Source: a virus
Direction: 5' to 3' (one strand)
Length of the DNA stretch: 64,000 nucleotides
IMG/VR virus record: IMGVR_UViG_3300037478_000343
Location: 4,180-68,179 of that record
Positions 4,147 through 60,600 of the stretch are shown one piece after another. The translations under genes and the position numbers were made by a program. Under the pieces are notes generated by a model, which was given only the letters and a program-made list of their open reading frames with translations, was not told where the DNA came from and made no database searches. The stretch's first letter is position 1; each line of letters opens with the position of its first letter.

Positions 4147-4836
4147 TCAAAACAGGGACGGGATGCCGTCCAGTTCGTTTGCGTACTCTGGTCGTTCATC
4201 ATTGACCAGCATATGATTTATCTGCACCAGTCGTTCGTAGAACCGCGCCTGCATGCCCTCGTCAAGTGGAACGTCCTCCTGGTGTAGCTGCTCCAGCGGC
4301 TTTGCCTCCGGATGGAAGCTGACGAACCTTATCTTTGGCCGGCCAGTGACAAATGCCTCGAACTGAACCTGTACGAAGTACTCCCACATGCACTGCTTCA
4401 CGCCAAATCTAAGCAGGTCTTTGTGCCTATCCAGAATCAGCGGGCACTTCACCTGCCCGGTCGTGTCGTCACCCTCAAAAAAGTCTGGGGTTGCGCTCGC
4501 GATGTCGAATGTGGGGTGAATAAACATGCCGGGGTTGATCTGCACCTTGCCGGTGGTAAACCGCAGCATGTCGTACTCACGGATGGCGCGCTCCTCGTAG
4601 GCGTGGCCATGCTCGAAGGCGGCGCACGTCGCTCCATCGACTGCCGGCTTCGTCAGTTCCTCCGCCATCTCGTCCAACATCCGACCGATCGTGGCGGGGC
4701 GACCGTACATTATCTTGTACGCACGGTCAGAGGCCGTGATGCGACCGCGCCGAGCGTCCATCCAAATCGGCGTGTTCTGCGGAATCCCCTTGGCCGGGTC
4801 CTTCGGCTTGTACAGTAGGCTGAAGTCGTACTTCAT
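4147..4836 (-). CDS. YqaJ-like viral recombinase-type exonuclease
   Basis: PIWMDARRGRITASDRA...AFEHGHAYEERAIREY matches the YqaJ/lambda-exonuclease family signature. Immediately downstream of recT, as in Sak/RecT-YqaJ modules. Start taken at Met-59 of track ORF 4147..5010. Confidence 0.8.
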   Translation of the reverse strand: MKYDFSLLYKPKDPAKGIPQNTPIWMDARRGRITASDRAYKIMYGRPATIGRMLDEMAEELTKPAVDGATCAAFEHGHAYEERAIREYDMLRFTTGKVQINPGMFIHPTFDIASATPDFFEGDDTTGQVKCPLILDRHKDLLRFGVKQCMWEYFVQVQFEAFVTGRPKIRFVSFHPEAKPLEQLHQEDVPLDEGMQARFYERLVQINHMLVNDERPEYANELDGIPSLF

Positions 4837-6995: not shown

Positions 6996-9509
6996 ATGCA
7001 ACTGTTCGACTACCAGAGCCGTGTTCTCGACGACGTGCGCTACGCCATCCGCGGAGGCGCACGCTCGATCTTAATGGTGCTCCCGACCGGTTCAGGAAAA
7101 ACGGTCTGCGGTGCCCACATGATTCATTCCGCTGAGTCGAAAGGCAACCCGACGCTATTCACCGCGCATCGGCGCGAGCTGGTGAACCAGACCGTCGACA
7201 AGTTGCAACGTTTCGGCGTACAGCATGGGACGATCATGGCCGGCAAGACGCCGTCCCTTTGGCATGGCGTGCAGGTTGCCAGCGTCGATACTTTGCGGGC
7301 TCGCTGCATGAGCCCACGCAAGAAGATGGAATTGCCACGCGCATCTATCCTGATGGTGGACGAAGCGCACCGGTCCTGCAGCCCGACCTACACGAAGCTG
7401 ATCGACCATTACCGTAAGGACTCGCTGGTGATTGGGCTCACGGCTACGCCGATTCGCGGCGACGGCAAGGGCCTTGGCCGCCACTACGACGAGATGGTTG
7501 TCGGACCCACGGTGCAAGAACTGATCGACATGGGGCGCCTGGTACAGCCCAAGTATTTCGTGCCGAGCATTCAGGACCTGACTGGCGTGCCTATCGCGAA
7601 GGGCGACTACGTCGAGAAGCACCTCGGCAACATCATGGGCACGAAAGAGGTGATCGGCGACGTCGTGGAGCATTACGGCAAGCTTGGCGAGGGCCCGGCC
7701 TTGCTGTTTGCGCCAGATGTGAAGTCGTCCATCGGCTACATGGAAGCATTCAATCGTGCTGGCATTTCTGCGGCTCATATTGATGCGTCCACGCCAGCGG
7801 ACGAGCGCGACCGCATCATCGCAGGACTCCTTGGCGGCCGGTTCGATGTTTGCTGCAACGTAATGGTGCTTTGCCTTGACACCGAAACCGAGATTCTCAC
7901 CGACCGAGGATGGACAAACTACCGGGAAATGACCAAGCAGCACAAGGTGGCTAATTGGGAAGGCGGTCGCGTGTGGTTTGAGGGGCCGCAAGATGTGGTC
8001 GTGAGGGACCGAGATCCAAGTGAGCGCATGTTCTCCATAGAGACGCGCAAGAAAAGCATCCGGGTTACCTCAGGGCATAGGATGCTGTACAGAACGAAGC
8101 ACGGAGGACGGTTCCTCAAATGCCCCGTGGACGAACTTGAAGGACGAAGCGTGCAGCTTCCGATTACCGGTCGCATTGATATAGAGCCCGCTGAAGTCAC
8201 ATTGGACGAATGTATGTTCGCGGGGTTCTTTGTTGGCGATGGCTCAAGGTGCCAACTACAGAGAGGAGGTGTCGAGTACGTTGTTTCTCAGAGCTTCGCT
8301 TATCCGAAGATAATTGCATGGTTCGATGCGCTGATTCTCAGGTGCGGTCTGCATTGCGTGCGAAAGGAGAGGGCATACGCAGTCAAATTCGTGCGCTGGA
8401 GCTTCTGCCGCGGAACCGGCGGAAAATCACAGAAACGCAACGGTGGCGTGGCTCGTCTAGAGTGGCTGCTGGACAAATCTTGCTCCTCCATCAGTAGTTT
8501 GAGCGCCTCTCAGTTCGAGGCGTTTATGCATGGTCTCTGGATGGCCGACGGCAACCACGGAGATGGCGCGACTCCAGTCAAGAACAAATATATAACCTCC
8601 TGCAACAAGTACATGCTAGACAACATTCAGGCCGCAGCCACTGTTCGCGGCATGCGGGTGTCGCTGTCTTCTGAGATTCTTCCACGTAAGGCAAACCACC
8701 GGTCGCAATGGACCCTATCGTTCTGCCATAGAGATTACTGCTCCACGAGCTGCTCTGAGTTTAAGGCAGAGAACATCTGGCGCCCAGAGAAGGTCTGGTG
8801 CGTCAAGACCACGTCAAAAAACATCATCACCAGGCGGCAAGGCAAGGTTGTTGTCATGGGCAACACCGAGGGCTTCGACTGTCCACCAGTGCGCACCATC
8901 ATCATGTGCCGACCAACCCGAAACATCGGTTTGTATTTGCAGATCGGCGGTCGGGGCCTGCGCACGTCGGACGGAAAGGACTCCTGCATAGTCATCGACC
9001 ACTCTGGGAGCGTGTACGAGCACGGCCTGCTGGAATGGGACCACGAGTGGAAACTGACCGATGCCGAGGGCTGCGAGTCTCGCGAGGAGCGCCAGAAAAA
9101 GCTGGACGAGAAGAAGCCTATAACCTGCGTCCAGTGCTCCCATGTGTATACCGGCCAGCTTATCTGTCCCAACTGCGGACACATGCCGAAGAAGCACGGA
9201 AAAATTGTCGAGAGTCGCCAGGCCGATCTGGTTGAGTTACGGACCCTGGCGCGCCAGAAAAAGGAGCGCAAAGACAAGCCCCGAGAGTACACGAAGGAGG
9301 AGAAGCAGCTGTTCTTTTCCATGGCGCTCCAGTACGCCGCTGACAGAGGACACAAAGATGGTTCAGTGGCTTGGAAATTCAAAGACCGCTTTGGCCACTT
9401 CCCTCAAGACATGCAGAGGATACCGACAGAGCCTTCACCGGAATTCATGCGGTTCATCCAGCACCTGAATATTAAAGCCGCCTACCGCCGGAAGAAGGAA
9501 GCGGCATGA
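6996..9509 (+). CDS. SF2 DEAH-box DNA helicase with C-terminal zinc ribbon, interrupted by an intein (extein about 506 aa)
   Basis: Walker A LPTGSGKT, motif II MVDEAH, motif III GLTATP, motif V split as VMVL|...|TEGFDCP, C-terminal CVQCS...CPNCGH zinc ribbon. A 331-aa insertion separates the two halves of motif V. Confidence 0.85.
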   Translation: MQLFDYQSRVLDDVRYAIRGGARSILMVLPTGSGKTVCGAHMIHSAESKGNPTLFTAHRRELVNQTVDKLQRFGVQHGTIMAGKTPSLWHGVQVASVDTLRARCMSPRKKMELPRASILMVDEAHRSCSPTYTKLIDHYRKDSLVIGLTATPIRGDGKGLGRHYDEMVVGPTVQELIDMGRLVQPKYFVPSIQDLTGVPIAKGDYVEKHLGNIMGTKEVIGDVVEHYGKLGEGPALLFAPDVKSSIGYMEAFNRAGISAAHIDASTPADERDRIIAGLLGGRFDVCCNVMVLCLDTETEILTDRGWTNYREMTKQHKVANWEGGRVWFEGPQDVVVRDRDPSERMFSIETRKKSIRVTSGHRMLYRTKHGGRFLKCPVDELEGRSVQLPITGRIDIEPAEVTLDECMFAGFFVGDGSRCQLQRGGVEYVVSQSFAYPKIIAWFDALILRCGLHCVRKERAYAVKFVRWSFCRGTGGKSQKRNGGVARLEWLLDKSCSSISSLSASQFEAFMHGLWMADGNHGDGATPVKNKYITSCNKYMLDNIQAAATVRGMRVSLSSEILPRKANHRSQWTLSFCHRDYCSTSCSEFKAENIWRPEKVWCVKTTSKNIITRRQGKVVVMGNTEGFDCPPVRTIIMCRPTRNIGLYLQIGGRGLRTSDGKDSCIVIDHSGSVYEHGLLEWDHEWKLTDAEGCESREERQKKLDEKKPITCVQCSHVYTGQLICPNCGHMPKKHGKIVESRQADLVELRTLARQKKERKDKPREYTKEEKQLFFSMALQYAADRGHKDGSVAWKFKDRFGHFPQDMQRIPTEPSPEFMRFIQHLNIKAAYRRKKEAA
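7872..8864 (+). mobile_element. intein with LAGLIDADG homing-endonuclease domain, inserted in helicase motif V
   Basis: Starts with Cys (CLDTETEILT, block A), TSGH block B, two LAGLIDADG-type motifs (MFAGFFVGDGS and FMHGLWMADGNHGDG), ends ...KVVVMGN followed by Thr+1 (TEGFDCP). Removing it restores a contiguous helicase motif V. Penultimate residue is Gly rather than His. Confidence 0.75.
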
Positions 9510-14066: not shown

Positions 14067-14315
14067 ATGCTCGCACCACACAGCGTCTATGGCTACGTGT
14101 CCGAGAAAGACATCGAGGAGGCCATCGAAAAGAGGCTGAGGACCACCGGCGCCGACAAGAAGGACGTTCTGGCGTCGCTGCTTGGGGAGGCCATCAACAC
14201 TCTCTTGAAGATTAACTCAGCGATACCCATCAGCTCACGACACCGGCACCTGATCTCGGGTCCGATGGAAGAATTTGCGAATGGCAGCGGCAAAGAAACA
14301 TATCCGACATCCTAG
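14067..14315 (+). CDS. hypothetical protein (82 aa)
   Basis: ATG at 14067 with a GAGGAGG RBS. Track ORF 14064..14315. Confidence 0.45.
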   Translation: MLAPHSVYGYVSEKDIEEAIEKRLRTTGADKKDVLASLLGEAINTLLKINSAIPISSRHRHLISGPMEEFANGSGKETYPTS

Positions 14316-15135
14316 TAGGGGTCGCGAAACGATCTGCGGACGGATGTCGGTAACGTTCGCCGCGAAGGACGGTGATGCGACTTGCGGTGTGTGCCGGTCG
14401 ATGGCGACGAACGGAAACCTTGAGAAGCTACGGCTGAACGACTCCAAGGAGAAGTTTCCCGGCGCCAACCAGAGCGGCAATCCCCGCATGACGGACCTGC
14501 AGAAGGCATTTGCAGCTCATCCTCTGGTGACGACCAACCCACGTCGCGCGGCGATTGAGGTTGGTTACAGCGAGTCCTACGCAGAGGATCACGCGCACGC
14601 GCTCAGGAAGCAGTTGTCGTTCGCCATTATCGCGAACCAGGAGGAGGCCAGGAAGCTATCTGCAATTTCGGCTGCTCGAGTGCAGCAGGAGCTTGCATCG
14701 ATGGGATTTGCAAATATTTTGGATTACTACGATGTTTGCGCTGAGACCGGGGAAGCCACCCCGAAGCAACTGAACGAACTGACGCGCGAGCAAGCGGCGG
14801 CCGTTCAGGAGGTAGAGATGTTGGAAATCGAGGATGCTGATGGCACTAAGAGAAAGGTGCTGGGGCGCATCAAGCTCACGGACAAGCGTGCGGCATTGGT
14901 TGAACTGGGAAAAACCATTGGACTTTTCAACAAATTTACCATTGAGGACCGCCGGCAGAACACGCTAGACCTTGAGCAGGTACCTACCGAGGACCTTGAG
15001 AAGGTCGAACGGTACCTGTTGAACGCCGCCCGCAAGACGCGGGACAAGATCGACAATCATGAGGCCATACCTGGCGAATACGCCGAGGCCGGGACATTAC
15101 TAGAGGGGCCACAGGATGGCGGTCAAGAAAACTGA
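14281..15135 (+). CDS. terS: terminase small subunit (Terminase_2 / P27-like); start uncertain (14281-14488)
   Basis: MTDLQKAFAAHPLVTTNPRRAAIEVGYSESYA...KLTDKRAALVELGKTIGLF matches the Terminase_2 small-subunit pattern, including the conserved C-terminal KLxDKxxALELLGKxLGxF-like segment. Confidence 0.75.
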   Translation: MAAAKKHIRHPSRGRETICGRMSVTFAAKDGDATCGVCRSMATNGNLEKLRLNDSKEKFPGANQSGNPRMTDLQKAFAAHPLVTTNPRRAAIEVGYSESYAEDHAHALRKQLSFAIIANQEEARKLSAISAARVQQELASMGFANILDYYDVCAETGEATPKQLNELTREQAAAVQEVEMLEIEDADGTKRKVLGRIKLTDKRAALVELGKTIGLFNKFTIEDRRQNTLDLEQVPTEDLEKVERYLLNAARKTRDKIDNHEAIPGEYAEAGTLLEGPQDGGQEN

Positions 15136-19564: not shown

Positions 19565-19741
19565 TCATTGCTCCTGTGTTTGGCGCGCCTCTTGGGGTGC
19601 TGGCCATAGGCGATTGAATGTTTCGCACGCCCTGTTATAGCAATCAGCGTCCCATTGCGAGAGGCTGCGTTCACGCATCAGGCGTTCTGCGGCGTCCCAT
19701 GCGGCGGCCATTGCGAGTTTGTGGGTTATGGTCATCATCAT
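19565..19741 (-). CDS. small protein, 58 aa (MMMTITHKLAMAAAWDAAERLMRERSLSQWDADCYNRACETFNRLWPAPQEARQTQEQ)
   Basis: Hand-translated. ATG overlaps the stop of the Cro-like gene (ATGA). Confidence 0.3.
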   Translation of the reverse strand: MMMTITHKLAMAAAWDAAERLMRERSLSQWDADCYNRACETFNRLWPAPQEARQTQEQ

Positions 19742-19938
19742 TGGTTTTTCCTCGGCAGTGATTCAAGCGCGAACTGCACGGTATACGGGAATGACCGTTG
19801 CCCCGACAGGTAGTAGCGCATGGCCCGCTCGGATATCCCGATCGCTCGAGCCGCGGCCCGTTGAGAGAGACCTGCGCCCTCAATGAGAGAGCGCAGGTAC
19901 TCGGGGGAGGGCTCATATTGACTAGGGTCAGGGCGCAT
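19738..19938 (-). CDS. XRE/Cro-like helix-turn-helix DNA-binding protein
   Basis: LSQRAAARAIGISERAMRYYLSGQRS is a typical XRE-family HTH. 66 aa. Confidence 0.7.
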   Translation of the reverse strand: MRPDPSQYEPSPEYLRSLIEGAGLSQRAAARAIGISERAMRYYLSGQRSFPYTVQFALESLPRKNQ

Positions 19939-20975: not shown

Positions 20976-21127
20976 TTCGTCACCTCAAAATGAGCAAAAT
21001 ATGCCCGGTAAGATTCTGGCGCGTCATCAATGCTTGCGAATTCTGCTACAAGGATGTCGCTCGGTTCGATCATTTCCGGCTCGCCCTGCTTGGCGGCCCT
21101 CTGGTGTAAGTATTCGTAATAGTCCAT
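20972..21127 (-). CDS. small acidic protein (about 51 aa; MDYYEYLHQRAAKQGEPEMIEPSDILVAEFASIDDAPESYRAYFAHFEVTK)
   Basis: Met-31 of track ORF 20972..21217 with a GTGAGG RBS. First gene of the leftward operon. Confidence 0.35.
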   Translation of the reverse strand: MDYYEYLHQRAAKQGEPEMIEPSDILVAEFASIDDAPESYRAYFAHFEVTK

Positions 21128-21331
21128 TGGTCGGTACCTCACTCTTGCGGTTGGTGTTGCGCCATAGCGGTATCGCTTGGCATATGTTGAGTATAGGCAC
21201 GTTGTGCCCAATGTCAAGCACTTTCTGCAAAAACCTTCAATTCACGCCGAAAACCGCGCCAACCAAGGGACAGCAGGGCGCCGATATGTTAGGATTTTGC
21301 GCTTACCTGATGGGATTTTCGAGGGCTCGGG

Positions 21332-21676
21332 ATGGGCGTAACGCAAGCAGTAAAGACCGCCCTTAGCACAGACATGCAGGCACTGCATGACGAGCTGCTA
21401 TCGGGCGCGCCGGACTTCCTCGACCTACCCGACAGACGCCGCAAGGAGCTTGAAAAGAACGTCATGCGGCGCGAGCGGGTGTTCTGGCTGCAGACGCGCA
21501 GGGTGATGAAGAATTTTGTATCCGAGGCCCTGGTGCGCCGGGCCATCTACGCCGAGGAGCGAGCCCACGATGCTGAAATGAGGCTCGGCGAGCTGGCCCT
21601 GATCTGCAACGGCATGAAGGACGAAGTAGACAGGCTGCAGGGTGAATTGACGAAACTTGCGAAGGGGATCAAGTGA
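21332..21676 (+). CDS. hypothetical coiled-coil protein (114 aa)
   Basis: ORF track. GAGGG RBS. Divergent from the leftward operon. Confidence 0.5.
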   Translation: MGVTQAVKTALSTDMQALHDELLSGAPDFLDLPDRRRKELEKNVMRRERVFWLQTRRVMKNFVSEALVRRAIYAEERAHDAEMRLGELALICNGMKDEVDRLQGELTKLAKGIK

Positions 21677-22245
21677 ACTTCCAGGACGGCACATTGAGCC
21701 GCCCCAGCCGTCGACGCTGGTTCGATTGGTACGGCCGCGAAGGTCGCCGCGTTCCCGTGTTCGGGCGCAAACTAATCGGCGATGGCGGATGCTCGTATCA
21801 TGTTGGCGGGCTGCGCGTACGCATCCGAGGTCGCAGCAATTTAGCCAACCCAAGCGGGCGGGTAATTGTGTCATTGGGGCGGTGGCAGTGGTTGCTGCTC
21901 CCTACGAAACGCTGATTTTGATGGTGCGGCCCGAAATGGATGCGACGTGCGCCGGCAGGCGGAAAGCATGCCCTCGGGCCTCTGCAACCCATAGCATCGG
22001 GGACTCACGGACCCCGGCCACCATCGAATGCAATTGAATGGCGCCTGACCCTCCTGGCGGCCCCAACCAAGCCTAGCGCAGCGACAGCCCGACCCCCACC
22101 ATAGAGGGATAACCCCCATACCCAACCCCTCCCGTATTATCCTCGCGTCTATCAGCGCTTCTCACTGCCCCGTGACTAACACCAGACCGAACACTAACAC
22201 CAGCCCCGTTAGTATCCATCCCGCTGTTACTGTCAGGGACAATAC

Positions 22246-22286
22246 GCAACCCAGCGGTTGCATATAAAGCGCAACCCCTAGGTTGC
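22246..22286. repeat. two adjacent 16-bp palindromes GCAACC-N4-GGTTGC (centres about 25 bp apart)
   Basis: Read directly: gcaacc-cagc-ggttgc and gcaacc-ccta-ggttgc, inside a 1.4-kb gene-free region. Confidence 0.6.
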
Positions 22287-22625
22287 ATGTCTATGCGCAA
22301 CTAAACAGAGCCCAACGCGCCATATTATCGGCCTATGCGCAATGATCCCGAGCGGGAGGAATCAGGCCTTATGCACCGTAGGGAGCTGATATGCTACCGA
22401 GCGGGAACGAAACCTCGGACAATAACGAAACCAGCTGAGGAAACGTAACACAGCCAGCCATACGCGCAACGAAACCTCGCGTATGACTGTGTTTTGATGC
22501 GCCACGCCAGGCCCAGCCACACACCCACACACCGGGACAAATACCTGTTTCTGACGCTTGTCCTCTCCGCCGGCTCCGCATGGCCGCACCCTCGAGCGCC
22601 TGCAGCTCAATGTCTATGCGGGTTA
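22287..22625. repeat. iteron-like short direct repeats (atgtctatgcg x2; tatgcgcaa x3; aacgaaacctcg x2)
   Basis: Read directly. Copies at about 22287/22609, 22292/22334/22460 and 22407/22468. Flanked downstream by AT-rich tracts at about 22800-22830 and 23020-23080. Confidence 0.45.
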
Positions 22626-23076
22626 CGCAACACCCCGACCCCATGGATGGCCGATCCCGTGGCCGGTAGTTGGTAGGTCAAGTGGGAAACGCGGGTCAGG
22701 GGGCAGGGCTGGGCGCTACCAGCTATCAACGGGTTGGCGCTGATACCTCGACATATGGCGAGTGGGCAATAGCATGCAGCGCTGTAGGCCGCATGGTTGT
22801 GCGGTTTATTACATAATAGTTATTATACGCACATGAGGGGAAACGTAGCGTATGTGGGGAATTGGGGCGATTGCTCATCCTGGCCGGCCCTGTCCGTAAG
22901 GGGCCCACGGCAGAGATGGGACCCGTCACCGCCACACAGGAAAGGCCATGCCGCTGAGAGATTCGGGTCCCATTGTCATGGTACCAAGTCTCTCTCGCAT
23001 ACGATTACGGAACTTTTGGAAAAGTGCCCTAAATTTTTTTGAAAAATATTAGGAAATTCAGTTACTAATTTGATGC

Positions 23077-23604
23077 TTACGCAAGGTCAATATAGGCTAG
23101 TGCGCGCTCCAAGCCCTCTCTAGAGTCTCCTAGGGCGGCGATGCCCAAGTTACACTTGTGGCAAAGCCACCCTCGGAATTGACCCGTTTCGTGACAGTGG
23201 TCTAGGCAAAGGTTTCTTTTTTTCGGTGGTCGGCCGCAGAGTTCGCAAAACCCAGGGTCCGCCCTTGTAGGCTTTGGAAGTCCCTGCCAACGTCGTGCCT
23301 GCTCTAACAGCGTTGTTCTGTTCTCGGTGGCGTACTTTCTCTTATGCGCTTTGTTAATTTTGTTCCAGCCGCGCCTTCTTGAAAGGATTCTTTCGTGGTT
23401 CGCATAGTAGTACACCTTTTCGCAGGCTCTGCACTTCGCTTGCAGGCCATCTTGCTTGGCGTTGTTCTTATTGAACTCTGACAGCGGCTTATCGCGCCTG
23501 CATGTCCGGCATTTCTTAGATTGATCGTTCACTAAAGTCCTTTTTGGTGAGGTGAAGCCACTCCTCTGAAGTTCACTGCCGATTATACCGAAAACCAGAT
23601 GCAT
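23077..23604 (-). CDS. endonuclease VII (T4 gp49-like) family nuclease
   Basis: CRTCRRDK...CRACEK...FCELCGRPPKKRNLCLDHCHETGQFRGWLCHKCNLGIAAL matches the Endo VII zinc-binding/HNH-like core. Visibly lower GC than its surroundings. Confidence 0.8.
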   Translation of the reverse strand: MHLVFGIIGSELQRSGFTSPKRTLVNDQSKKCRTCRRDKPLSEFNKNNAKQDGLQAKCRACEKVYYYANHERILSRRRGWNKINKAHKRKYATENRTTLLEQARRWQGLPKPTRADPGFCELCGRPPKKRNLCLDHCHETGQFRGWLCHKCNLGIAALGDSREGLERALAYIDLA

Positions 23605-23615
23605 GATTATACGCT

Positions 23616-23831
23616 TTGGCCTATATTTGTTTTGTGAAAAAAAATAGCCATCTCATTGCGCTCCTGTTGCTGTCCTTGGTAGTGTCGGGTTGTGCCTCAA
23701 AACTGAGCGCACCGCACCCACACGAGTTGGAGTACGAGAAATGCAAGATGCGCGGCGGCATTCTCATCACGACCGGGACCGCCGGCAGGCTCAGGACGGA
23801 GCCATGGACGGTACAGTGCGTTCGACGTTGA
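23616..23831 (+). CDS. possible small lipoprotein (start uncertain: TTG 23616 or GTG 23634)
   Basis: ...KKNSHLIALLLLSLVVSGCAS: signal peptide with lipobox VSGC. Overlaps an alternative-frame ORF. Confidence 0.3.
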   Translation: MAYICFVKKNSHLIALLLLSLVVSGCASKLSAPHPHELEYEKCKMRGGILITTGTAGRLRTEPWTVQCVRR

Positions 23832-32547: not shown

Positions 32548-34194
32548 TTGAGTGCCGCTGCCCCCGTCCAAAACCTAACCCAGATTCAGGCCGAGCTTGC
32601 ACGGCGTGATCAGTATCGTTTTTTCAAGGACGCGTGGACAATCATGGACCCCGCGCCGTTCCACGATACGTGGCATCTTGAGGTTATCTCCGAGTTCCTG
32701 ACCTACGTGACGCTGGGAGACATCACTCGCCTAGTCGTCAGCATGCCGCCTCGCATGACAAAAAGTTTAATGTGTTCAGTCAGTTGGTGCGTATGGTCCT
32801 GGGTGCAGAACCCCAAACTGCAGTTCCTCACCGCCTCCTACGACCTCGATCTGTCCAAGCGAGATACCCTGAAGTCTCGCCGCCTTATTGAATCTGCATG
32901 GTTCCAAGAGCGATGGGGTAGAGAATTCAAGCTATCCGCCGACGAGAACATGAAGGGCCGCTACTCGAACACCAAGGGTGGTCACCGGATCGCCATCACG
33001 TCTGGCGGTAAGACTACCGGGGAGGGGGGCGATGTCATCCTGATCGACGACGCGCACAACGCGAGAGAAGTTTACTCCGATGTAAAGCGTGAGGGCGTGC
33101 TGGAGTGGTACGACAACGCTATGCGATCCCGCCTGAACAACCAGAATACCGGCGCCATCGTGCATGTCGGCCAGAGAACACACGAGGGCGACGTGATCGG
33201 GCATGTGCTCAGGAAGGAGGGCAAGGTCCAGCTCAACGACGACGGTAAGTGGGTGCATCTGGTTCTGCCGAACGAGTACCGCCCGAGTAAGCGCTGCGTG
33301 GTGTACCTACCGAAGGATGTGAAGCGCTCCAAAGAGGACCCTGACTTTGAGCCAGTTCCGATCTTCGAAGATCCGCGCCAAAAAGAGGGCGAGCTTCTGT
33401 GCCCAGGCAGGCTGGGTAAGGAGGCGACAAACGCGCTGAAGCCGCCTCACGGCATGAGTGAGCGAGACTACAACTCTCAGTACCAGCAGGACCCCGCGGC
33501 CGACCAGGGTCTCATCCTCAAAAAGCACTGGTGGCAGCCGTGGGTATATCCGGAATGGCATCCGCACCACCACCGGCGACGAGAGATGCCGAAGTGCGAG
33601 ATGTTGATCCAGATTTACGACACCGCGTTCGAGACCGAGGAGGAGAACGACTACTCGGCTCGGACCACATGGGGCGTGTTCACGTATTCGCCGGAGTCCA
33701 TGCATCACCAGACTCGCGCCATACTCAAGGGAAAGCCAAAGAGATGCGCCATTCTGGTCGAGGCATGGCGGGACAAGATCGCGTTTCCGCAGCTCAGGCG
33801 GGAGGCGATCCGCGCCTACAACAAGATGGACCCAGATATGGTTCTGATCGAGAAGAAGGCGTCGGGGCACTCCCTGATTCAAGAATTGAGGCAGTCCGGG
33901 GTGAGGGTCAAGGCCGTCGACCCCAAGGGCAAGGACAAGGTGCTGCGCGCCCACGTGAGTTCGGCGCCACTGGAACAGGGATGCATATTCTACGTGCCCG
34001 GCCACAACGAGGCGAACGACGTAATTGAGGAAGCGTCGAAATTTCCGATGGGCATCAACGACGACTATGTCGACACCGTGGTCATGATGCTGGCGTACCT
34101 GAGGCGGATGGGCTCGATTGAGTACTTCGACGAGGAGGACGACAACGAGCTTAATTTGTTCAAGCCCCGCAGGGAAAGGGGCATCTATGGCTAG
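32548..34194 (+). CDS. terL: terminase large subunit (start uncertain)
   Basis: N-terminal ATPase region (FKDAWTIMDPAPFHDTWHLEVISEFL...LVVSMPPRMTKS Walker-A-like ...VILIDDAHN Walker B) and a C-terminal RNaseH-like nuclease region, typical of Terminase_6-type TerL. 548 aa. Confidence 0.85.
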   Translation: MSAAAPVQNLTQIQAELARRDQYRFFKDAWTIMDPAPFHDTWHLEVISEFLTYVTLGDITRLVVSMPPRMTKSLMCSVSWCVWSWVQNPKLQFLTASYDLDLSKRDTLKSRRLIESAWFQERWGREFKLSADENMKGRYSNTKGGHRIAITSGGKTTGEGGDVILIDDAHNAREVYSDVKREGVLEWYDNAMRSRLNNQNTGAIVHVGQRTHEGDVIGHVLRKEGKVQLNDDGKWVHLVLPNEYRPSKRCVVYLPKDVKRSKEDPDFEPVPIFEDPRQKEGELLCPGRLGKEATNALKPPHGMSERDYNSQYQQDPAADQGLILKKHWWQPWVYPEWHPHHHRRREMPKCEMLIQIYDTAFETEEENDYSARTTWGVFTYSPESMHHQTRAILKGKPKRCAILVEAWRDKIAFPQLRREAIRAYNKMDPDMVLIEKKASGHSLIQELRQSGVRVKAVDPKGKDKVLRAHVSSAPLEQGCIFYVPGHNEANDVIEEASKFPMGINDDYVDTVVMMLAYLRRMGSIEYFDEEDDNELNLFKPRRERGIYG

Positions 34195-34253: not shown

Positions 34254-34535
34254 GTGAAGGACAAGCCCAAATACAAGCCTACCCGAACCGACCGAGCGAT
34301 GGCCGAAGGGGTGGACGATCTCCTGACGGCCCTTATGCACGGCGATCTGGTGGGTCTTGGGGTGTGCGCAACCACCAAAGAGGGCAGGCCGGTGTATTTC
34401 TATCTAGATAAGCTGGAGAGCCACGACTCTCTCTCTGGTCCTATGTCGAAGCTAATGGGACTGTACACGATGAACCGTAATTTCAACAAGCAAATCACGG
34501 CCCCCAAGCAAAACCGAAGCTTTATGGTTCACTGA
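34254..34535 (+). CDS. hypothetical protein (93 aa)
   Basis: ORF track, between terL and the portal gene. Confidence 0.35.
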   Translation: MKDKPKYKPTRTDRAMAEGVDDLLTALMHGDLVGLGVCATTKEGRPVYFYLDKLESHDSLSGPMSKLMGLYTMNRNFNKQITAPKQNRSFMVH

Positions 34536-36916
34536 TGGCGGGCAAGTACAACTACGAAGACGAAGACGTGATGCTCGACGGGGATGACCCGTTCGCGGAC
34601 GTGAAGCGCACCGATGACGGCACCGCAGTCTATTCTGACGGGGACGACATTGTCGTAGACCTGACTGGCCGGGGTCCGTATGACGATGACGGGGAAGAAT
34701 CTGATCACGACGAAAACCTTGCGGAAAAGCTGGATGCTGACGAGCGACGCAAGGTAGGAGAGGATTTGGTTCTGGCCGTCAAGGCCGACGACGAGTCCCG
34801 CGAGAAATGGAAGCGCCGGCTGCGTGAAGGTCTGGAGCTGATCGGAGTAGAGGACATCCCGACCGACTCCTCGGCGTTCGACGGATCAAGCACCGTCAAC
34901 CATCCCGCCATCGCCGAGGCCATGGTTCGGTTTCAGGCCAACGCTATCGAGGAGGTATTTCCCGCGGAGGGTCCGGTCAAGTGCGTCGTGATCGGCGAAT
35001 CGAATCCTGAACTTCAGGACCAGGCGGTTCGCGTTCAGGACTTTATGAACTACCAGCTGACCGAGGCCGACGACGAGTATTTCGAGCAATCCGACCAGCT
35101 GACCATGTACCTTCCGTACGCCGGCAGCGCATTCCGAAAGGTCTACTACGACCACACGGAGGAGGTTTCCGTGTCCCGCTTCGTGGATGCGCAACACTTC
35201 ATCGTGCCGTACGATGCAACATCCCTGAAGACCTCCAAGCGCTACACCCACTGGTACACCCTGAGTGACGTAGAGGTCGATGCCCGCAAGCGCTCCGGTG
35301 AGTTTCTGAAAGACGCGAAGCTGGACCCGGACGGGAAGCTTGGCGGACGCGGGGAAGACAGCCTGTCGGACGTTTCTGACGACCGCGAGGAATCACGGGC
35401 CGAGGACGATGTTACCTACGACTTCTACGAAGTACACGTTGAGATGTGCTTCGAGCAGTTCGACCAGGAGGAAGGCGAGGATATCGCCTACCCATACGTG
35501 GTCACGGTCGAACTCGAGTCCGGCGAGATCATGGCAATCCGCCGGCTATGGAAAGATGGCGATCGGCGCCGCCGCAAGCGTGTCCACTTCATCCACTACA
35601 AGTTCCTGCCGGGACTTGGTTTCTACGGATGGGGATACCTGCACATCATCGGTTCCCTCGGGAAGGCCGCGTCTGGCGCGCTGCGTGCGCTTCTGGACGG
35701 CTCCGCGACCGCTTCCCTGCAGGGTGGCTTCAAGTCCAAGGAATCGAAGGTAGCCGGGGAGTTCGTCTTCAAGCCGGGGGTATGGCAGGACGTGGACATG
35801 ACCGCGGAGGACCTTGCGAAGTCGTTCTATACGCCGCCGTTCAAGGAGCCGTCTCCGGCCCTGTTTCACACCCTGGATTTGCTGGTCAACGGCATCAAGA
35901 CATTCGCCTCTACTACCGAGGCCATGACCGGCGCCGCCGACAACAAAGGACCCGTGGGGACCACTCTGGCCCTGATCGAGCAGGGGTCCAAGATCTACTC
36001 CGGCATCCACAAGCGCATGCACAATTCGGCCCGGCGCGAGTTCAAGCTCCTGGCGGCCCTCAACTACGAGTGCATGGAAGAGGAAGCATACCCCTACGAC
36101 GTGTCTGGCGGGGACCGGTCTGTGTTCAAGTCCGACTTCGACGGCAGGGTCGACATCCTTCCCGTGTCGGACCCGAACATATATTCCAGCGTGCAGCGCA
36201 TCGCTCAGGCTCAGGCCGTCCTTGAGTTGATAACTCAAGACGCGTCCATGTACGACGAGGAGGCCAAGCGTATTGCCCACCTAGAAATGTACAAGGCCCT
36301 GCGCATTCCCAAGCCGGAACGGTTCCTGCCGAAGAAGCGCACCAAGCGCATGGACCCGGTTACGGAGAACCAGATCATCCTAACCGGAGGTGGCACCGAG
36401 TCATATCCGGAGCAGGACCACGAGGCCCACATCCACGTCCACCAGATGTTCTTGATGGAGGTTCAGGGTATGGGGCTGGACCCCAAGGCGGTTGAGGCCG
36501 TCACGTTCAGCATGCAGGCTCACTTGGTTTCGCACCACGCTCACGCGTATAGGCTGCGCATCGAGCAGCAGATCGGGGTACCTCTGCCAGACACCGACTT
36601 CACCGCGATCCGGGACGAGGAAGATGTGCCGGTCGAGATCGACAACGCCGTAGCGCGCGCCGTGGCGGCCAATGTCGCTCCACCGCCGCCCCCTCAGGGT
36701 CCCGAGCCAGATCCGCTCGAGATGAAGCAGCAGGAGCACGAACAGCGCCTGGCTCACAAGGACGAGGAGCACAAGCAGAAGCTGTCTCACAAGCAGTCTG
36801 AGCATGATCTGGATATTTCGTCCGATGAGGAATCGCACGATCAGGCCCTTCGTAAGAAGGCAGCAGACAACATCATAGACTCAGCCGCACGGGTCGACAA
36901 GATGTCGAGTGAGTAA
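34535..36916 (+). CDS. portal (head-to-tail connector) protein
   Basis: 793 aa immediately after terL. Acidic N-terminus, long central conserved-looking region, charged C-terminal tail. ATGG overlap with the upstream stop. Assignment by size and position. Confidence 0.75.
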   Translation: MAGKYNYEDEDVMLDGDDPFADVKRTDDGTAVYSDGDDIVVDLTGRGPYDDDGEESDHDENLAEKLDADERRKVGEDLVLAVKADDESREKWKRRLREGLELIGVEDIPTDSSAFDGSSTVNHPAIAEAMVRFQANAIEEVFPAEGPVKCVVIGESNPELQDQAVRVQDFMNYQLTEADDEYFEQSDQLTMYLPYAGSAFRKVYYDHTEEVSVSRFVDAQHFIVPYDATSLKTSKRYTHWYTLSDVEVDARKRSGEFLKDAKLDPDGKLGGRGEDSLSDVSDDREESRAEDDVTYDFYEVHVEMCFEQFDQEEGEDIAYPYVVTVELESGEIMAIRRLWKDGDRRRRKRVHFIHYKFLPGLGFYGWGYLHIIGSLGKAASGALRALLDGSATASLQGGFKSKESKVAGEFVFKPGVWQDVDMTAEDLAKSFYTPPFKEPSPALFHTLDLLVNGIKTFASTTEAMTGAADNKGPVGTTLALIEQGSKIYSGIHKRMHNSARREFKLLAALNYECMEEEAYPYDVSGGDRSVFKSDFDGRVDILPVSDPNIYSSVQRIAQAQAVLELITQDASMYDEEAKRIAHLEMYKALRIPKPERFLPKKRTKRMDPVTENQIILTGGGTESYPEQDHEAHIHVHQMFLMEVQGMGLDPKAVEAVTFSMQAHLVSHHAHAYRLRIEQQIGVPLPDTDFTAIRDEEDVPVEIDNAVARAVAANVAPPPPPQGPEPDPLEMKQQEHEQRLAHKDEEHKQKLSHKQSEHDLDISSDEESHDQALRKKAADNIIDSAARVDKMSSE

Positions 36917-54623: not shown

Positions 54624-57600
54624 ATGCCCCGTAACATCCGCATGCCGAACGGCGTCGTCATTTCGAACGTACCGGACGGTGTTAGCAAGCAGGAATTTCA
54701 AGACAAGTATATCGCCAATTTCGGGCAGGAGAAATGGCAGGAACTTGTTGCTGCGCCCGTTGCCGAGCAGATGCCGGCCGGCATCGCCGAGCCCGCTCCT
54801 GAGGTAGCACCGCCCCAGCCAACCGGCATGACCGCAGATGAGCAGATGGTCGCCCGTGACACGCTCGCGGTGCAGCCGGCCACCGACCCATCCCTGTCCC
54901 AGTTCGAGGACGATCCCGCCGGAGCCCAGCAAGAGCAGGGCAAACTCCAGCGCCGCCTGATCGATCTTGGTATCCGCAAGCCCGAGGACTACCACCTACC
55001 CGAGGAAGAATACGACAGGATCACGCAGGACCGCCTGCAGGCATCCATGGCGGCCCGGCAGGCCCCTGCTATGGAAGGCGCCCCACCAGTCGAGAGCGGC
55101 GGCGGCTGGGGCGACGAAGTCGAGGACGACCGCCAGAGAGGCTGGTGGAAACTTTTCAAGGAAACATGGAAACAGCTTCCGGCTCAGATCGGTTCCGGTG
55201 CCCGCATGAAGTCTGCCGCCACGGATCGCATGGCGGCCGAGAACACCACCATCGGCGGGCTCTATCTCGAAAGCCTGCAGGAGCAGTACGTCTCAGGAGA
55301 GGTGAGCGAGGGCGCCTCCCGAATGGCTGAGGATGCCGCGTCGAAGCATGGCATGGAGCCAGAGCAATACGCGGAGTACGTGGCCGGCCAGATAGATGCC
55401 GCCACCGCAGAAGAATTCGCGTCCATGGAGGACTACCAAGCGGCCCGCGAGCAGATCGAGGCGGTCAAGCCTCAGTCTGCGACCGAGGGCGGGTGGATTC
55501 CTCACATATCCTCGATGATCATCGAGAACACCCCGCAACTCAGCTACATCATCGCCGGTGTCGCGACCGGCAACCCGGCTCTGACCATGTCCTTGTTTGG
55601 TACCGACGTGTACGCACGCACGTTCGCGCAGGCCCGCTCAGAGGGTCGGGATGTAGGCGGGGCCGCGCAGGATGCGTTTGCGTCGACCGTGATCGAGGCC
55701 GCTACCGAAGGCGTACCAGTTTACAAGATTGCAAAGCTGATGCGTGCTGGCAACAAGGGCAAGGCAATGAAGCTGTTGTCCGGTGTGGGAACCGAGGCAA
55801 CACAGGAGCTTCTCGCAGAAGGCGGTCAGATTTTGTACGACTACGGCGTCCTCGAAAAGGAAATGACGTGGGGCGAGGCGTTCTCACGTATGCGAGACGC
55901 TGGTGTGGTAGGCGGTGTGCTCGGTAGCGTCGTGTCTGCGCCGGCCGCCGTGTTCGGTGACGACAAGATGGCGGACGCCAACACCGCCGTCAACGATGCC
56001 AAGAAGAAGCTCCAGTCCGTAATCGCTCGTGTACAGAACCCGAACGAGGCCATCAGCGCAGCCGAGGTTAACGAAGCGAAGGACGCCTACAAGAGCGCCC
56101 TCACCGGCAAGCGCAAGCTGGTCGAGGAAAGGCTCGAAGCCAAGAAAGAAAAGAAGGCTGCCAAGGAGAAAAAGAGCGAGGTCAAGGCCGTCAAGAAAAT
56201 GGCCCCGGTCGAGCGTACCCGTCACGACAAGCAGAAGAAGCAAGCAGAATCTGACCAGTCCGTAACCGGTGAGGTTACACCCGAAGACGTGCAGTCCGTC
56301 GAGACGCTGGAGAAAATCGGCGGGGGCACGATTACCGCCAAAGACAGCGATGCCCTGAAAGAGGTCATGGATCAAGGGTACGTGAAGGTCGCCAAGAGCG
56401 GAGCGCTTCTTGTTCTGCCGGCCGGGAAGCGTCGCATAAAGGCCGTACGCGACACCATAGAGAGTAATGCGACAGCAAAACCAGAGGTTGTCGAGCCGGT
56501 TGTCGAACCAGTCAAGACAAAGCAGCCAGCCGAGACGCCCAAGGTCGAGGCTACAGTCGACGCTACGCCGAAGGAACAGCCTAAGGTCGAAACGGATACC
56601 CAAATTGGGGACGTAGATACCCAAATTGGGAATGCTTTGCGCGGGAAGCGTATAGACGACGAGTGGACTGCGTTTTCTCCTGAAGCTGGCAGCCTCAATA
56701 TCCCGCGGGACCAGATGCCGCAGATCAAGGCAAAGCACCGCGGCGCGCTCACCAATTTCCTGAAGGCCCGAGGCATCGAAGGTACCGAGGCGGAAGTGCC
56801 GGCGTCGTCTCTGAAGACAACCCAAGTGGAGTTCTCCGAAGCCAAGGTCGACAAAGCGAAATCATTTACCGATAGCAACCGGGCCATCCTGGTGTCCTCC
56901 GATGGCTACGTGCTGGACGGCCATCACCAGTGGCTGGCGCAGGCCGACAAGGGAGAGGGCATTCGGGTCATCAAGCTGGATGCGCCGATGAGCCGCCTGA
57001 TCGAGGAGGCGAAAGCGTTCCCTAGCTCGGAAGCGTCTGTAGTTCCGACCTCTTCTGAGCCCGCTTCCGAGCGACAGGATAAGACCAACGATCGTTTGCG
57101 CGACCTACTGGACAGTGGGATGAGACGCTTCGCGATGGAAACCCAAGGTCAGGCCATTCTCGATGACATGCAGGAGTCCGGCACCTCGCCGGCAAGTGTG
57201 TCAGATACGTTCTGGCGCAAGACCTACTTCTCTCTGAACGCGCAGGCCCAAGCACGGTTTCAGCGGATGATGCGCGGGCTGGGATTTAAGCCAGGCGATG
57301 TCGGTAGCGTTGCAGCGGATGGCACACAACATACCCTCGACGATTGGGTTCAAGTGGGCCAATTTATCGGCGAGGACTTGGGGGAATCCGCCGAGCACCT
57401 AGAAGGCACCGAGCGCGGTTATGTTTCGCTAATGAAATGGGCGAACGATCAGAGCGCTGCTGCAGAGGCGGAGGCTGCTAAGAGGCCACGATTGACCGAG
57501 GGAGATAAAAAGCAGAAGACCAAGGCCACGCTGCCCGAGAAGACACCGACCAAAAAGAAGTCTAAGAAAAAGAAGAAGAAGACCACGAAGAAGAAGGGCG

Positions 57601-60600
57601 CCACTCCGGATGTTCCTCGATCACAGTTCAGCGTACCCCGTGCGAAACAGACGGCCCCAGATAGGCAGGTCGCGGTCGATGAATTCATGGGAGAGTTCCG
57701 CGACGGTACAGAATCCACCCCGCTGAACCCGGACGCCCGAGTACTCGACAAGAAGGCATTTATCGAAGCCCGCCCAACCCAAGGCGTGGTCTACATAGAC
57801 TTCTTGGCGTCTATCGAGCATGGCAAGGGACACGGCAACAAGGCTCTCAAGTACACCATCGACCTAGCAGATAAGCATGGCGTCGAACTGATGCTGACCG
57901 CGACGTCTATCGACACCAAGAATTTCTCTCAGGAGGATCTGGTGGACTGGTACCAGCGCAACGGTTTCCGTGGCACCAAGGTCATGATTCGCAAGCCTCG
58001 GGCCGGTAGCGCTACGTCGAACTTCCGTGAGATTGACTCGGCCAAGGATGGTCTGGGAAGTGTATCTAAGGCGACCATCGACGAGATGATCCAGAAGCAC
58101 TTCGCCCCTTGGTTCGGTCTGACGAACTTCCAGGTGGTGGAATCCGTCAGTGAGCTGCCCGCCATGGCCAGCCAAGAGATCAAACGCTTCGGCCTGAAGG
58201 TTATGGGTTTGTTCGCGGAAAGCGACGTCGACGGCAGCCCAACCATCTACATAGTGTCTGAGAATCAGTGGAGCACGCAATCCGCTATCCAGACCATCCT
58301 GCACGAGACCGTGGGTCACTACGGCCTGCAAGCTCTGCTTGGGCCGAAGGGCTACAAGAAGATGATGCGCACGATCCTGCGAGACTTCCCGTCCGAGGTA
58401 GCCGCGAACTCTGGAGTCAAAACGGACTCACTCGTGTTTGCCGGCGAGGTTGATAGGATGCAGCAAGCCGAGGAATTGGTGGCACGCGTCGCCGAGTCTG
58501 TCGTCAATGGCCACGAGCTGAACAAGAACCGTATGCGGCTGTGGGAGAGGGTGGTCGCAGCGATCAACATGGCTCTGGTGAAGCTGGGTATCAAGAAGAT
58601 GTCCCAAGCCGACCTTGGTTATCTGGTGCAGAAGGCGGCTCACTACGTTCGGACTCACCAGCAGTCCGACATCTCGATGCGCTCGCAGCAGGTCAGGCGC
58701 ATGAAGGACGCCATGCGTGCCATGGAGTTCGCAACCAGCGAGGCGGTTGGCAGTGACTTCAGCGTGCTAGACAAGTCCCGCGACAGTGACCCGGAACTTG
58801 ACCGGTTCCTGTCCAAGATTGGCCACGACCGCGGCTCGAAGCTGAAGCCGTTTCGCGACTGGTGGTCTACCAAGAAGGGTCGCATCAAGCAGATATTTGA
58901 GATCGAGATATTCGACCAGTTCGCCGGCATCAAGCACCTCGAACAAGAACTGGACATCATCGACTCTCAGGAGAGCGCGTACGTGAGCGTGCGCCTCACC
59001 GCCGGTACCGACACCATGATTCGAGCCGCGCTCGAGGACGGTGTGCCGCTCTGGGACAAGGACGGTGTGCCAGCCATCAAGAAGGGCACGCGAGGTCTGA
59101 TTGATATCCTGGCGCCGGTCGGTCAGAACGCCGAGATGCTGAAAATGTTCGAAGCGTTCATCGTTGCCAGACGAGCGAAGCACCTACTGGAGGAAAACCG
59201 AGAGAAGCTTCTGAGCATGGAAGAAATCGCCGCCGTCCGTAACTACGTCCGCAAGAACAAGCTAGAGGCACTGTTCAACCAGACCGCGCAGGAGATGGCT
59301 GAGTACAAGAAGGGCGTGCTGGACTTCGCGCAGGACGCTGGCCTTATCGACAAGGACTCCCGCGCTCTTTGGGAGCGGGCTGACCACGTGCCGTTCTACC
59401 GCGTGCTGGCCGACAAGAACACCGCAGGTCCGTTCGCGCACGCCAAGATGGGGCAGCTCGGGAAGGTCATCCACAGGCTTAAGGGTGGCACTGACGTTCT
59501 GAAGAACCCGCTTGAGTCGATCGTTCAAAACATCGCCATGCTCATAGAAGCGTCCGTCAAGAACAAGGCCATGGCCGATGTAGTGCGGAACTTCGAAGGC
59601 ACCGGCGCCATCACCAAAGCACCGCAGGCTGTCATCTCGTCTGCGCTGATTCCGCTCGGACAGGTGAGAACCATGCTGGATGAGGCCGGCGTGTCGCTGG
59701 ACGCCGTGGGGCAGGACCTCCTGACCGGCATGGCCAAGCTGATGTCGATGCAGCCACCGCAGGGGGACAACGTGTTCTCAGTCCAGGAGAACGGCAAGAA
59801 GCGCTACTACTACGCGCATGACGCCGGCCTGATGCGCGGAATGAGCAACATCAACCCGAACCAGTGGACCTTCCTGATGAAGGCGCTCAGGTTCCCAAAG
59901 AGGGTAATCACGCGCGCCATTACCCTTACCCCGGACTTCATCCTCAAGAACTGGTTCCGGGACATGCTGCACTCGTACGTGCTGGGCAGACACGGGACCG
60001 TGGTGCCGATCTACGACTCGCTCAAGGGTTGGGGCAAGGCCATCGCTCAGGACGAGACCTTCAAGGACATCATGTCCGGTGGGGGTATGTTCGACAGTGG
60101 CTACGTGAACGCGTCCGATCCGCACGCACAGCACATCGCCATTCGTCGCAAGGTGCTGTCTGAGGGCAGGGGAAATATCCTCGACACCCCAGAGAAGCTG
60201 ATGAACTTCTACATGCGTCTCGCGAACGGCGCGGAAAACGCCCACCGAATCATCGTGTACCAGAAGGCCCTGGAAAAGACCGGCAGCCGTAAGGCGGCTC
60301 TGTTCGAGGCCAGAGACATTATGGACTTCGCGGTCCGTGGCGCAAACCCTGCCATTCGCTTCCTGACCGAGACAGTGCCGTTCTGGGGCGCGCGCGTACA
60401 GGGCTTGCAGCGCACCGGGAAAGGATTCACTGAGCACCCGATCCAGACAACCCTGAAGGCCATTCCGATTGTATTTGCAAGCGTTGCGCTGTACGCCATC
60501 AATCGCGATGACGACCGCTACAAGGCATTGTCTGGCTATGAAAAGAGGCTTTACTACCACTTCTTCGACGTGTTTGAGCAAGGCGACACATGGCGCCTGC

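Follow-up and report, generated by a model that had tools for sequence, protein, structure and literature searches.

The 64,000-nucleotide stretch analyzed here, hereafter the window, covers positions 4,180 to 68,179 of IMG/VR virus record IMGVR_UViG_3300037478_000343 and is a tailed-phage genome. Its positions 21677 to 23076 form a 1.4-kb gene-free region, which is the subject of this work. In the source contig, Logan calls no gene within this interval, which lies between an open reading frame (ORF) of 114 amino acids (aa) and a gene for an EndoVII/HNH-type endonuclease. The 114-aa ORF (21332 to 21676, + strand) is of unknown function; it is called by Logan, has a codon log-odds score of +0.44, and shares 88% amino acid identity with its counterpart in the only close relative. 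The endonuclease gene (23077 to 23604, − strand), referred to below as EndoVII, matches the profiles PF02945 (3e-15) and phrog_2633 (1.4e-26). Both genes read towards the region, so that a 3′ end lies at each of its borders. The original prediction, whose observation we judge largely right, had transcription diverging around the region. However, the immediate flanks are convergent, and the divergence point lies further left, at about 21130 to 21330. The leftward small-gene operon has a promoter-like sequence there, TTGACA-16-TATACT (21190 to 21217, − strand), which is sigma-70-like and agrees with 11 of the 12 consensus positions.

The interior of the region lacks a convincing ORF, as had been predicted. 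All 13 internal ORFs that were tested scored −0.12 to −0.36 log-odds per codon, versus +0.27 to +0.44 for neighboring genes, and searches of Pfam and PHROG with the internal ORFs returned no matches. On these two grounds we rejected a coding or pseudogene reading. Indels between the relative and the phage across the region also have lengths that are not multiples of three.

The sole close relative is IMG/VR UViG_3300037755_000910, of 33.7 kb, which exists in a second, 100% identical copy. We compared the two phages in windows of 40 nucleotides (nt) and took third-codon-position identity as the neutral level (0.55 to 0.74 in four of five genes; 0.55 to 0.93 in all five). Six blocks of the region stand at 0.90 to 1.00 identity. 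They are a C-rich tract (22090 to 22129; 0.90), the window with the twin palindromes described below (22230 to 22289; 0.90 to 0.97), two peaks of block B (22550 to 22589, 0.95; 22650 to 22689, 0.97), block C (22790 to 22829; 0.95), and block D (22930 to 23069; 0.90 to 1.00), which extends into the last 55 nt or so of EndoVII. Because these values lie above the neutral level of 0.55 to 0.74, parts of the region are under constraint. The proposal that this is a functional non-coding element is thus borne out in part, but its more specific form, an origin with iterons, is not.

The full extents of the blocks are wider than their peaks. Block A, which includes the first C-rich tract and the palindromes, spans 22050 to 22305. 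Block B (22540 to 22745) overlaps a second C-rich tract (22512 to 22611), contains a degenerate palindrome unit at 22610 to 22631, and has no ORF common to phage and relative. Block D (22914 to 23133) spans the EndoVII stop codon. It holds a 10-bp inverted repeat, ATGGGACCCG/CGGGTCCCAT, at 22916 to 22973, and an AT-rich tract (23014 to 23073) in which each strand has AT hairpins. Blocks B and D also include small ORFs, which were rejected as genes because a by-eye check of the alignment found them truncated or frameshifted in the relative. Between the blocks lie a variable segment of 240 nt (22301 to 22540; identity 0.00 to 0.50), where the relative has about 75 unrelated nucleotides, and a poorly conserved linker (22836 to 22913; 0.40 to 0.65) with a 10-nt indel.

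The first part of the region, 21677 to 22049, is a variable slot. It is not conserved, and its internal ORFs have negative coding scores. In the relative the slot has about 600 nt, including a DUF4326-like gene (locus L207, 7528 to 8181). At a distant homologous locus, the slot after the 114-aa ORF holds an Acb2/Tad1-hairpin gene, of the anti-defense type (L190, 751 to 1221). The cargo after the 114-aa ORF thus differs from genome to genome, and the window has nothing callable there.

The two 16-bp palindromes that had been noted about 25 bp apart are present. Their GCAACC-N4-GGTTGC cores lie at 22246 to 22261 and 22271 to 22286, exactly 25 nt from start to start. Together they make up a twin palindrome of the form CGCAACC-N4-GGTTGCAT (22245 to 22288), with the loops CAGC and CCTA, that is 0.97 identical in the relative. 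The twin palindrome is unique in the window: the pattern matches three times versus 0.2 expected, and none of 100 shuffles reached three.

The short repeats fared less well. Two of them were found as listed, atgtctatgcg at 22287 and 22610 and the 12-mer aacgaaacctcg at 22406 and 22468 (two matches were reached in 3 of 100 shuffles). However, tatgcgcaa, given as threefold, has just two exact copies (22292 and 22334), and the third reads tacgcgcaa. The 10-mer CTATGCGCAA, which contains tatgcgcaa, occurs at a chance-level count when one mismatch is allowed. Tandem Repeats Finder detected no iteron array in the region, just CCACACAC twice. Therefore, the repeats called iteron-like are not tandem. 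Nor are they conserved: the twin palindromes are kept in the relative, but both 12-mers, the second tatgcgcaa copy, and the near-copy counted as the third all lie in 22301 to 22540 and are missing from it.

The iteron-like repeats are best read as decayed copies of the twin-palindrome unit. As judged from the sequence, an intact unit ATG-CGCAACC-N4-GGTTGCAT-GTC, present at 22245 and 22270, accounts for both the palindromes and the "iterons," in that atgtctatgcg and tatgcgcaa correspond to the inter-unit spacer plus the left half-site. A spacer with a truncated third half-unit, ATGTCTATG-CGCAAC, follows at 22287 to 22301 (+ strand) and is mutated to CGAAAC in the relative. Degenerate half-units lie at 22334 to 22342, 22462 to 22470, and 22610 to 22631. 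The 1.4 kb contain 5 copies of the half-site CGCAAC, versus 36 in the 64 kb.

Block A has a pronounced predicted structure. Compared with dinucleotide shuffles, its RNA fold has z scores of −4.85 (− strand) and −3.08 (+ strand). One component is an imperfect hairpin, 80 nt long and with 24 pairs (22164 to 22243, − strand). The two phages differ at seven of these pairs (in both bases at three, in one base at four), with no pair broken; slid-partner controls were 33 to 50% paired and had no compensatory pairs. Maintenance of this hairpin by compensatory changes is suggestive only, because with just one relative the covariation carries no statistical weight. The hairpin has seven G-U pairs on the − strand, and folded as DNA it has z scores of −2.93 on the − strand versus −0.56 on the + strand. 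It is thus stable on the − strand only, owing to its G-U/G-T pairs. The twin palindromes form the other component, with a DNA fold of −11.9 kcal/mol (z = −3.73). Palindrome 2 and the tail that follows it, TGCAACCTAGGGGTTGCG plus CTTTATAT, give a terminator-like call on the − strand (22287 to 22260) in both phages.

Further hairpins were found to the right. Block C begins with a + strand hairpin, GCCGCAT/GTGCGGT (22788 to 22805), that has a T-rich tail to 22810 and then AT-rich sequence to 22835. This stretch (22788 to 22835) has a z score of −2.84 and a conservation of 0.95, and it resembles a + strand intrinsic terminator. In the variable segment, a + strand hairpin is followed by TTTT at about 22447 to 22499. 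The combination of a GC-rich hairpin and a T-rich run therefore occurs on both strands of the region, with short T runs. Blocks B and D folded no better than shuffles on either strand (z = +0.74 and −1.42, respectively, on the − strand), and a structured RNA across them was rejected on this basis. Rfam 15 gave no match in the whole window at the gathering score and none for 21100 to 23700 at E values up to 5. A tRNA and tmRNA search of the window found none. Among sigma-70-like promoter calls inside the region, none was common to both phages.

The region also contains extremes of base composition. The + strand from 22050 to 22230 is C rich and G poor, like a rut (Rho-loading) site. Within it, 22111 to 22210 has a stronger C skew than any other 100-mer in the 64 kb (45 C, 12 G; skew −0.58, compared with a mean of 0.03 and a standard deviation of 0.13), and 22512 to 22611 is the fourth most C-skewed. 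Each C-rich tract is followed on the + strand by hairpins, the first by the 80-nt hairpin and the twin palindromes and the second by the hairpin with the T-rich tail at 22788 to 22810. The composition at 22111 to 22210 is thus rut-like, with hairpins after it, although such composition is a signature only. On the opposite strand, 22085 to 22130 has five G-runs, GGGG-TT-GGG-TAT-GGGGG-N15-GGGGG-TC-GGG, which are kept in the relative and constitute a possible G-quadruplex motif.

Of the two AT-rich tracts that had been pointed out, one is exceptional. The segment from 23014 to 23073 has a GC content of 0.23 (mean 0.57, standard deviation 0.064), is the most AT-rich 60-mer of the 64 kb, and is 100% conserved. 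It abuts the EndoVII stop codon, about 750 nt downstream of the twin palindromes. The other tract, represented by 22805 to 22864 (GC 0.37), ranks merely among the top ten.

We then asked where else the palindrome unit occurs, scanning public sequence collections for GCAACC-N4-GGTTGC twice within 5 to 15 nt. Among viral contigs, the paired pattern was found in the relative and in one unrelated high-GC contig. Metagenomes yielded at least 120 loci, with a spacing of 25 nt in 50 and of 27 nt in 30. Most of the listed loci are promoters in high-GC soil bacteria, typically arranged as TTGAC, palindrome, a CATAAT-like hexamer, second palindrome, an AHSA1/SRPBCC gene, and an ArsR-type (HTH_20) gene. 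In other listed loci the pair lies between an AHSA1-like gene and clpP, and in at least half of those listed an AHSA1-type gene starts within 120 nt. A twin palindrome that brackets a −10 box is thus a recurrent arrangement, both in AHSA1(SRPBCC)-ArsR(HTH_20) operons and in divergent AHSA1-like/clpP pairs (for example, L083, 1860 to 2675, and L165, 6040 to 6918). No gene common to the phage and the listed palindrome-pair loci was found. The twin palindrome is not phage specific.

We also searched 185,579 species genomes for a stricter pattern that included the asymmetric flanks of the phage unit (GGTTGCAT ... CGCAACC). This pattern was found in five genomes, and 9 of the 12 matches lie in a single metagenome-assembled genome (MAG) of the Sandaracinaceae, JBILQT01, from Lake Mendota. 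Seven loci of at most 8 kb from this MAG contain 14 twin units and 34 single palindromes. The copies are intergenic, mostly 3 to 60 nt past stop codons, in either orientation. The repeat reads GCAACC-N4-GGTTGCAT-GTyrAATG-CGCAACC-N4-GGTTGCAT and occurs up to five times in 8 kb. Its inter-unit spacers (GTCAATG, GTCGAATG) resemble the second spacer of the phage (GTCTATG), and its inter-unit junction (GGTTGCAT-GTCAATG-CGCAACC) matches the third half-unit of the phage. Beyond the palindromes, block A has no homology with these loci. In all places where the unit occurs, the loops vary among copies and the stems are constant, a pattern that fits either recognition of double-stranded half-sites or selection for a hairpin with any loop.

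From these seven loci, the dispersed Sandaracinaceae repeat looks like a repetitive extragenic palindromic (REP) element or a bacterial interspersed mosaic element (BIME); we found no description of it in the literature, where searches on the palindrome and on the sample accessions yielded nothing relevant. REPs are described in PMC3733652 as palindromic repeats of 20 to 40 bp with presumed roles in termination and mRNA stabilization; termination and protection of mRNA 3′ ends are likewise the roles proposed in PMC3733652 and PMC2817692. Like the REPs, BIMEs, and REP doublets (REPINs) of Escherichia coli, Pseudomonas, and Stenotrophomonas, the phage unit is short (19 nt, stem of 6 to 7 bp), imperfectly palindromic, and closely paired, and the Sandaracinaceae copies are dispersed, extragenic, and mostly located just past stop codons. 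However, the phage has one locus only, and its units are in direct orientation, whereas REPIN units are inverted and those of BIMEs alternate. The phage copies also do not have the GTAG or CGTC tag that marks one end of a REP (PMC3733652); their flanks are CAATA and ATAAAG. Several copies in the Sandaracinaceae MAG are preceded by GACG, which is only suggestive of a REP tag.

We propose that the region serves mainly as a composite zone of termination and insulation that uses host-type hairpins, together with conserved blocks of some further cis function. This reading is tentative, with a probability of roughly 40%. In this scenario, a short rightward early operon, consisting of the 114-aa ORF and variable cargo, would meet the leftward EndoVII transcript at the junction. 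Transcripts of the + strand would enter the C-rich, G-poor tract, which has the signature of Rho loading, and then the stable hairpins. The second C-rich tract and the conserved hairpin with its T-rich tail would provide further + strand stops. In the other direction, the EndoVII transcript would pass the AT-rich hairpins and could end at the twin hairpins, the second of which is followed by CUUUAUAU, and at the 80-nt hairpin.

Because the unit is a dispersed repeat close to stop codons in the Sandaracinaceae, the twin palindromes are probably orientation-independent 3′-end hairpins. They may terminate transcription or stabilize mRNA, and they could also bind a host protein. The relative agrees with this placement: its + strand DUF4326-like gene stops about 150 nt before the C-rich tract, the long hairpin, and the twin palindromes. 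In both phages, block A therefore lies where the rightward operon ends. Termination itself, a part for Rho, and which strand is transcribed and how far are inferred from these observations.

The proposed layout has a precedent in the cro-nutR-tR1 segment of phage lambda, where termination is Rho dependent and the rut sites lie around boxB. As in lambda, the phage zone is downstream of a short early rightward gene, and a C-rich, G-poor tract is followed by small hairpins and then by further terminators before the next gene block. Unlike in lambda, we identified no similarity to boxA or boxB and no N-like protein, and the next phage gene is on the opposite strand. The two phage hairpins also have different loops, so a loop-specific RNA recognition is unlikely.

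Several observations weigh against a termination and insulation zone. A length of 1.4 kb far exceeds what termination requires. Blocks B and D are 0.95 to 1.00 identical without significant folding, and terminators need no such identity. The T tracts are short, and the rut-like composition could equally mean a G-rich leftward RNA. The apparent covariation of the 80-nt hairpin comes from two sequences, and 66 of 500 shuffles reach the observed value. The promoter and terminator rules of the host may also differ from the consensus rules that we used. Finally, because the unit pair is present in a single copy, a REP-like origin in the phage is an analogy and not a demonstrated fact. The constraint on blocks B and D exceeds what termination would impose, and an additional cis-acting site or RNA is likely.

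The preference of the folds for one strand raises the possibility of a non-coding RNA (ncRNA). It would run leftward, mostly from 23076 to 22050, either as an RNA of its own or as a long 3′ tail of the EndoVII mRNA, with blocks D, C, and B as functional RNA and the twin and 80-nt hairpins as a structured, protective 3′ domain. Both block A as RNA and the 80-nt hairpin as DNA fold better on the − strand, as does the whole 1 kb (z = −2.89, versus −1.95 on the + strand). The seven G-U pairs are on the − strand, and all seven varying pairs stay paired. Sense strands in this phage genome are G rich, and so is the − strand from 22000 to 22650. The conservation of the blocks above the neutral level is also expected in this case. 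However, Rfam has no match even at the relaxed threshold, blocks B and D fold no better than expected, no conserved promoter was found, the 240-nt segment in its middle is dispensable in the relative, and covariation cannot be established from two sequences. We consider such an RNA possible but doubtful. A more specific version, in which the phage took up, or converged on, the Sandaracinaceae hairpin repeat as the 3′ domain (with the 80-nt hairpin) of a leftward ncRNA or cis module of about 1 kb that insulates early from late genes, appears unlikely. Under a replication origin, which had been the first suggestion and which we also regard as unlikely, the palindromes would bind a dimeric initiator, hairpins or cruciforms and bent DNA would assist, and 23014 to 23073 would unwind. 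The region does resemble iteron origins such as lambda ori, P4 ori/crr, and plasmid oriV in being non-coding, in having repeated sequences like protein sites, and in its extreme AT tract, which lies 5 standard deviations below the mean GC content. The palindromes are conserved and their loops vary, which suggests recognition of double-stranded half-sites, and extra CGCAAC half-sites are present. Unlike those origins, the region has two intact sites and scattered degenerate half-units instead of a regularly spaced array of three or more direct repeats of about 17 to 22 bp, its further half-sites and 12-mers are missing or mutated in the relative, and about 750 nt separate the AT tract from the palindromes. 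No neighboring gene has an initiator-like match in Pfam or PHROG, the helicase and primase module is at 7 to 11 kb, and the cumulative GC-skew minimum of the window is near 6 kb, away from the region. The palindrome pair is not origin specific either, because it occurs in many copies in one bacterial genome and at bacterial promoters.

Those bacterial promoters suggest a different use, in which the palindromes would be operators around TATAAA (22263 to 22268), as in ArsR/SRPBCC systems. A 66-aa Xre-type protein or an ArsR-type repressor of the host would then control a rightward transcript that runs towards the late genes, through the terminators. The phage shares with the ArsR/SmtB operator-promoters of AHSA1-ArsR operons the doubled GCAACC-N4-GGTTGC, the 25-nt spacing that is one of the two modes among the metagenome loci, and a 9-nt, A/T-rich spacer (ATATAAAGC). 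In those loci the spacer usually has a −10-like hexamer, TTGAC is often directly upstream of the first palindrome, and an AHSA1-type gene often starts close by, as described above. The 66-aa protein (19738 to 19938, − strand), which is encoded in the leftward operon 2.3 kb away and matches the Xre-family HTH_31 profile (29.9 bits; cutoff 27), was the only DNA-binding candidate found near the palindromes. The phage site departs from the bacterial ones in its flanks (CGCAACC...GGTTGCAT, compared with the typical GGCAACC...GGTTGCC), in its TATAAA, which does not have the invariant final T of a −10 box, and in a poor −35 element (CAATAC or ACAATA). No + strand promoter call at the site reached the scan threshold, neighboring genes include no ArsR/HTH_20 or AHSA1 gene, and the site is on the 3′ side of an operon rather than upstream of a gene. 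We regard a repressible promoter as quite improbable. It seems highly improbable that block D, or the entire region, is a packaging site (pac or cos) or represents terminal repeats collapsed in assembly. A block of about 200 nt that is nearly identical between phages differing by 13 to 29% elsewhere is typical of sites for conserved machinery; the DNA is AT rich and potentially bent, and it is non-coding and just upstream of a long rightward gene block with the structural module. However, neither the TerL gene (32548 to 34194) nor the gene similar to the Terminase_2 small subunit (14275 to 15135, + strand; 61 bits) is adjacent. The characterized relatives of TerL are remote, T1-like and mycobacteriophage, and argue weakly against fixed ends. 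T1-like phages and mycobacteriophages with those TerL types package by the headful mechanism. No part of the region has a second copy in the window, and none of the three assemblies has a contig end there (the Logan end is at about window position 776), which makes the proposed physical genome ends unlikely.

EndoVII itself has features that resemble those of a mobile endonuclease cassette. Its codon usage is atypical (log-odds 0.01; GC content at third codon positions, 0.57), the two most AT-rich 60-mers of the window (23014 to 23073 and 23591 to 23650) bracket the gene, and in the relative an additional YAcAr-domain gene adjoins it.

Elsewhere in the window we recognized a superfamily 2 (SF2) helicase (6996 to 9509), a portal protein (34535 to 36916), a primase, RecT, an exonuclease, SSB, and a methyltransferase. 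The Terminase_2-like gene is located within the replication and recombination module, 17 kb from TerL, and it is conserved in the relative. In the TerL of the relative, about 1011 nt are inserted in frame past residue 72 or so (L062, 8998 to 10037; corresponding to about 32763 in the TerL of the window, which does not have it). Because the insertion is in frame, forms a single 884-aa ORF with TerL, and has a faint LAGLIDADG_3 match, it is probably an intein. A 2327-aa protein (54624 to 61607, + strand) comes after a homolog of DNA-ejection proteins. Its only matches are PHROGs of unknown function, including a profile of 3431 positions, and it may be a large ejected virion protein. We dropped the idea of N4-like hairpin promoters because no RNA polymerase was recognized and the 2327-aa protein matches only these families.

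Kin of this phage are rare in the collections that we searched. Among cultured phages, the nearest are the Roseobacter phages CRP-901 and CRP-902, whose TerL identity is only 41%, and CRP-901, when compared, has no gap comparable to the gene-free region. In 5.8 billion protein clusters, the 114-aa ORF, EndoVII, and a 150-aa ORF were found in the source genome and one relative only. The Logan source contig has 66,459 bp, and the longest recorded contig with its proteins has 74,680 bp. A DNA similarity search against known phages and plasmids gave nothing useful, a 692-aa protein had no match in viral contigs, and the 114-aa family had none in metagenomes. Some remoter loci have just the 114-aa ORF in common with the phage; others carry just an unrelated EndoVII. 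Exact-word scans of viral contigs with blocks D and B returned nothing beyond the relative.

On present evidence, this region probably belongs to an ordinary category, a conserved intergenic control or termination zone. It illustrates that palindromes, short repeats, and AT-rich DNA should not be called an origin without comparative support. The loose ends of interest are the hairpin repeat, which is host-like, and blocks B and D. These blocks, which are nearly invariant, unstructured, and non-coding, are concrete targets in the search for a new cis-acting site or RNA. If the sharing of the palindrome unit with the Sandaracinaceae (Myxococcota, freshwater) reflects the host, it would be a cheap lead for host prediction in an uncultured phage whose genome has at least some 66 kb. 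If the phage did take up or converge on that repeat, this would be the first host clue for a lineage known from two assemblies only.

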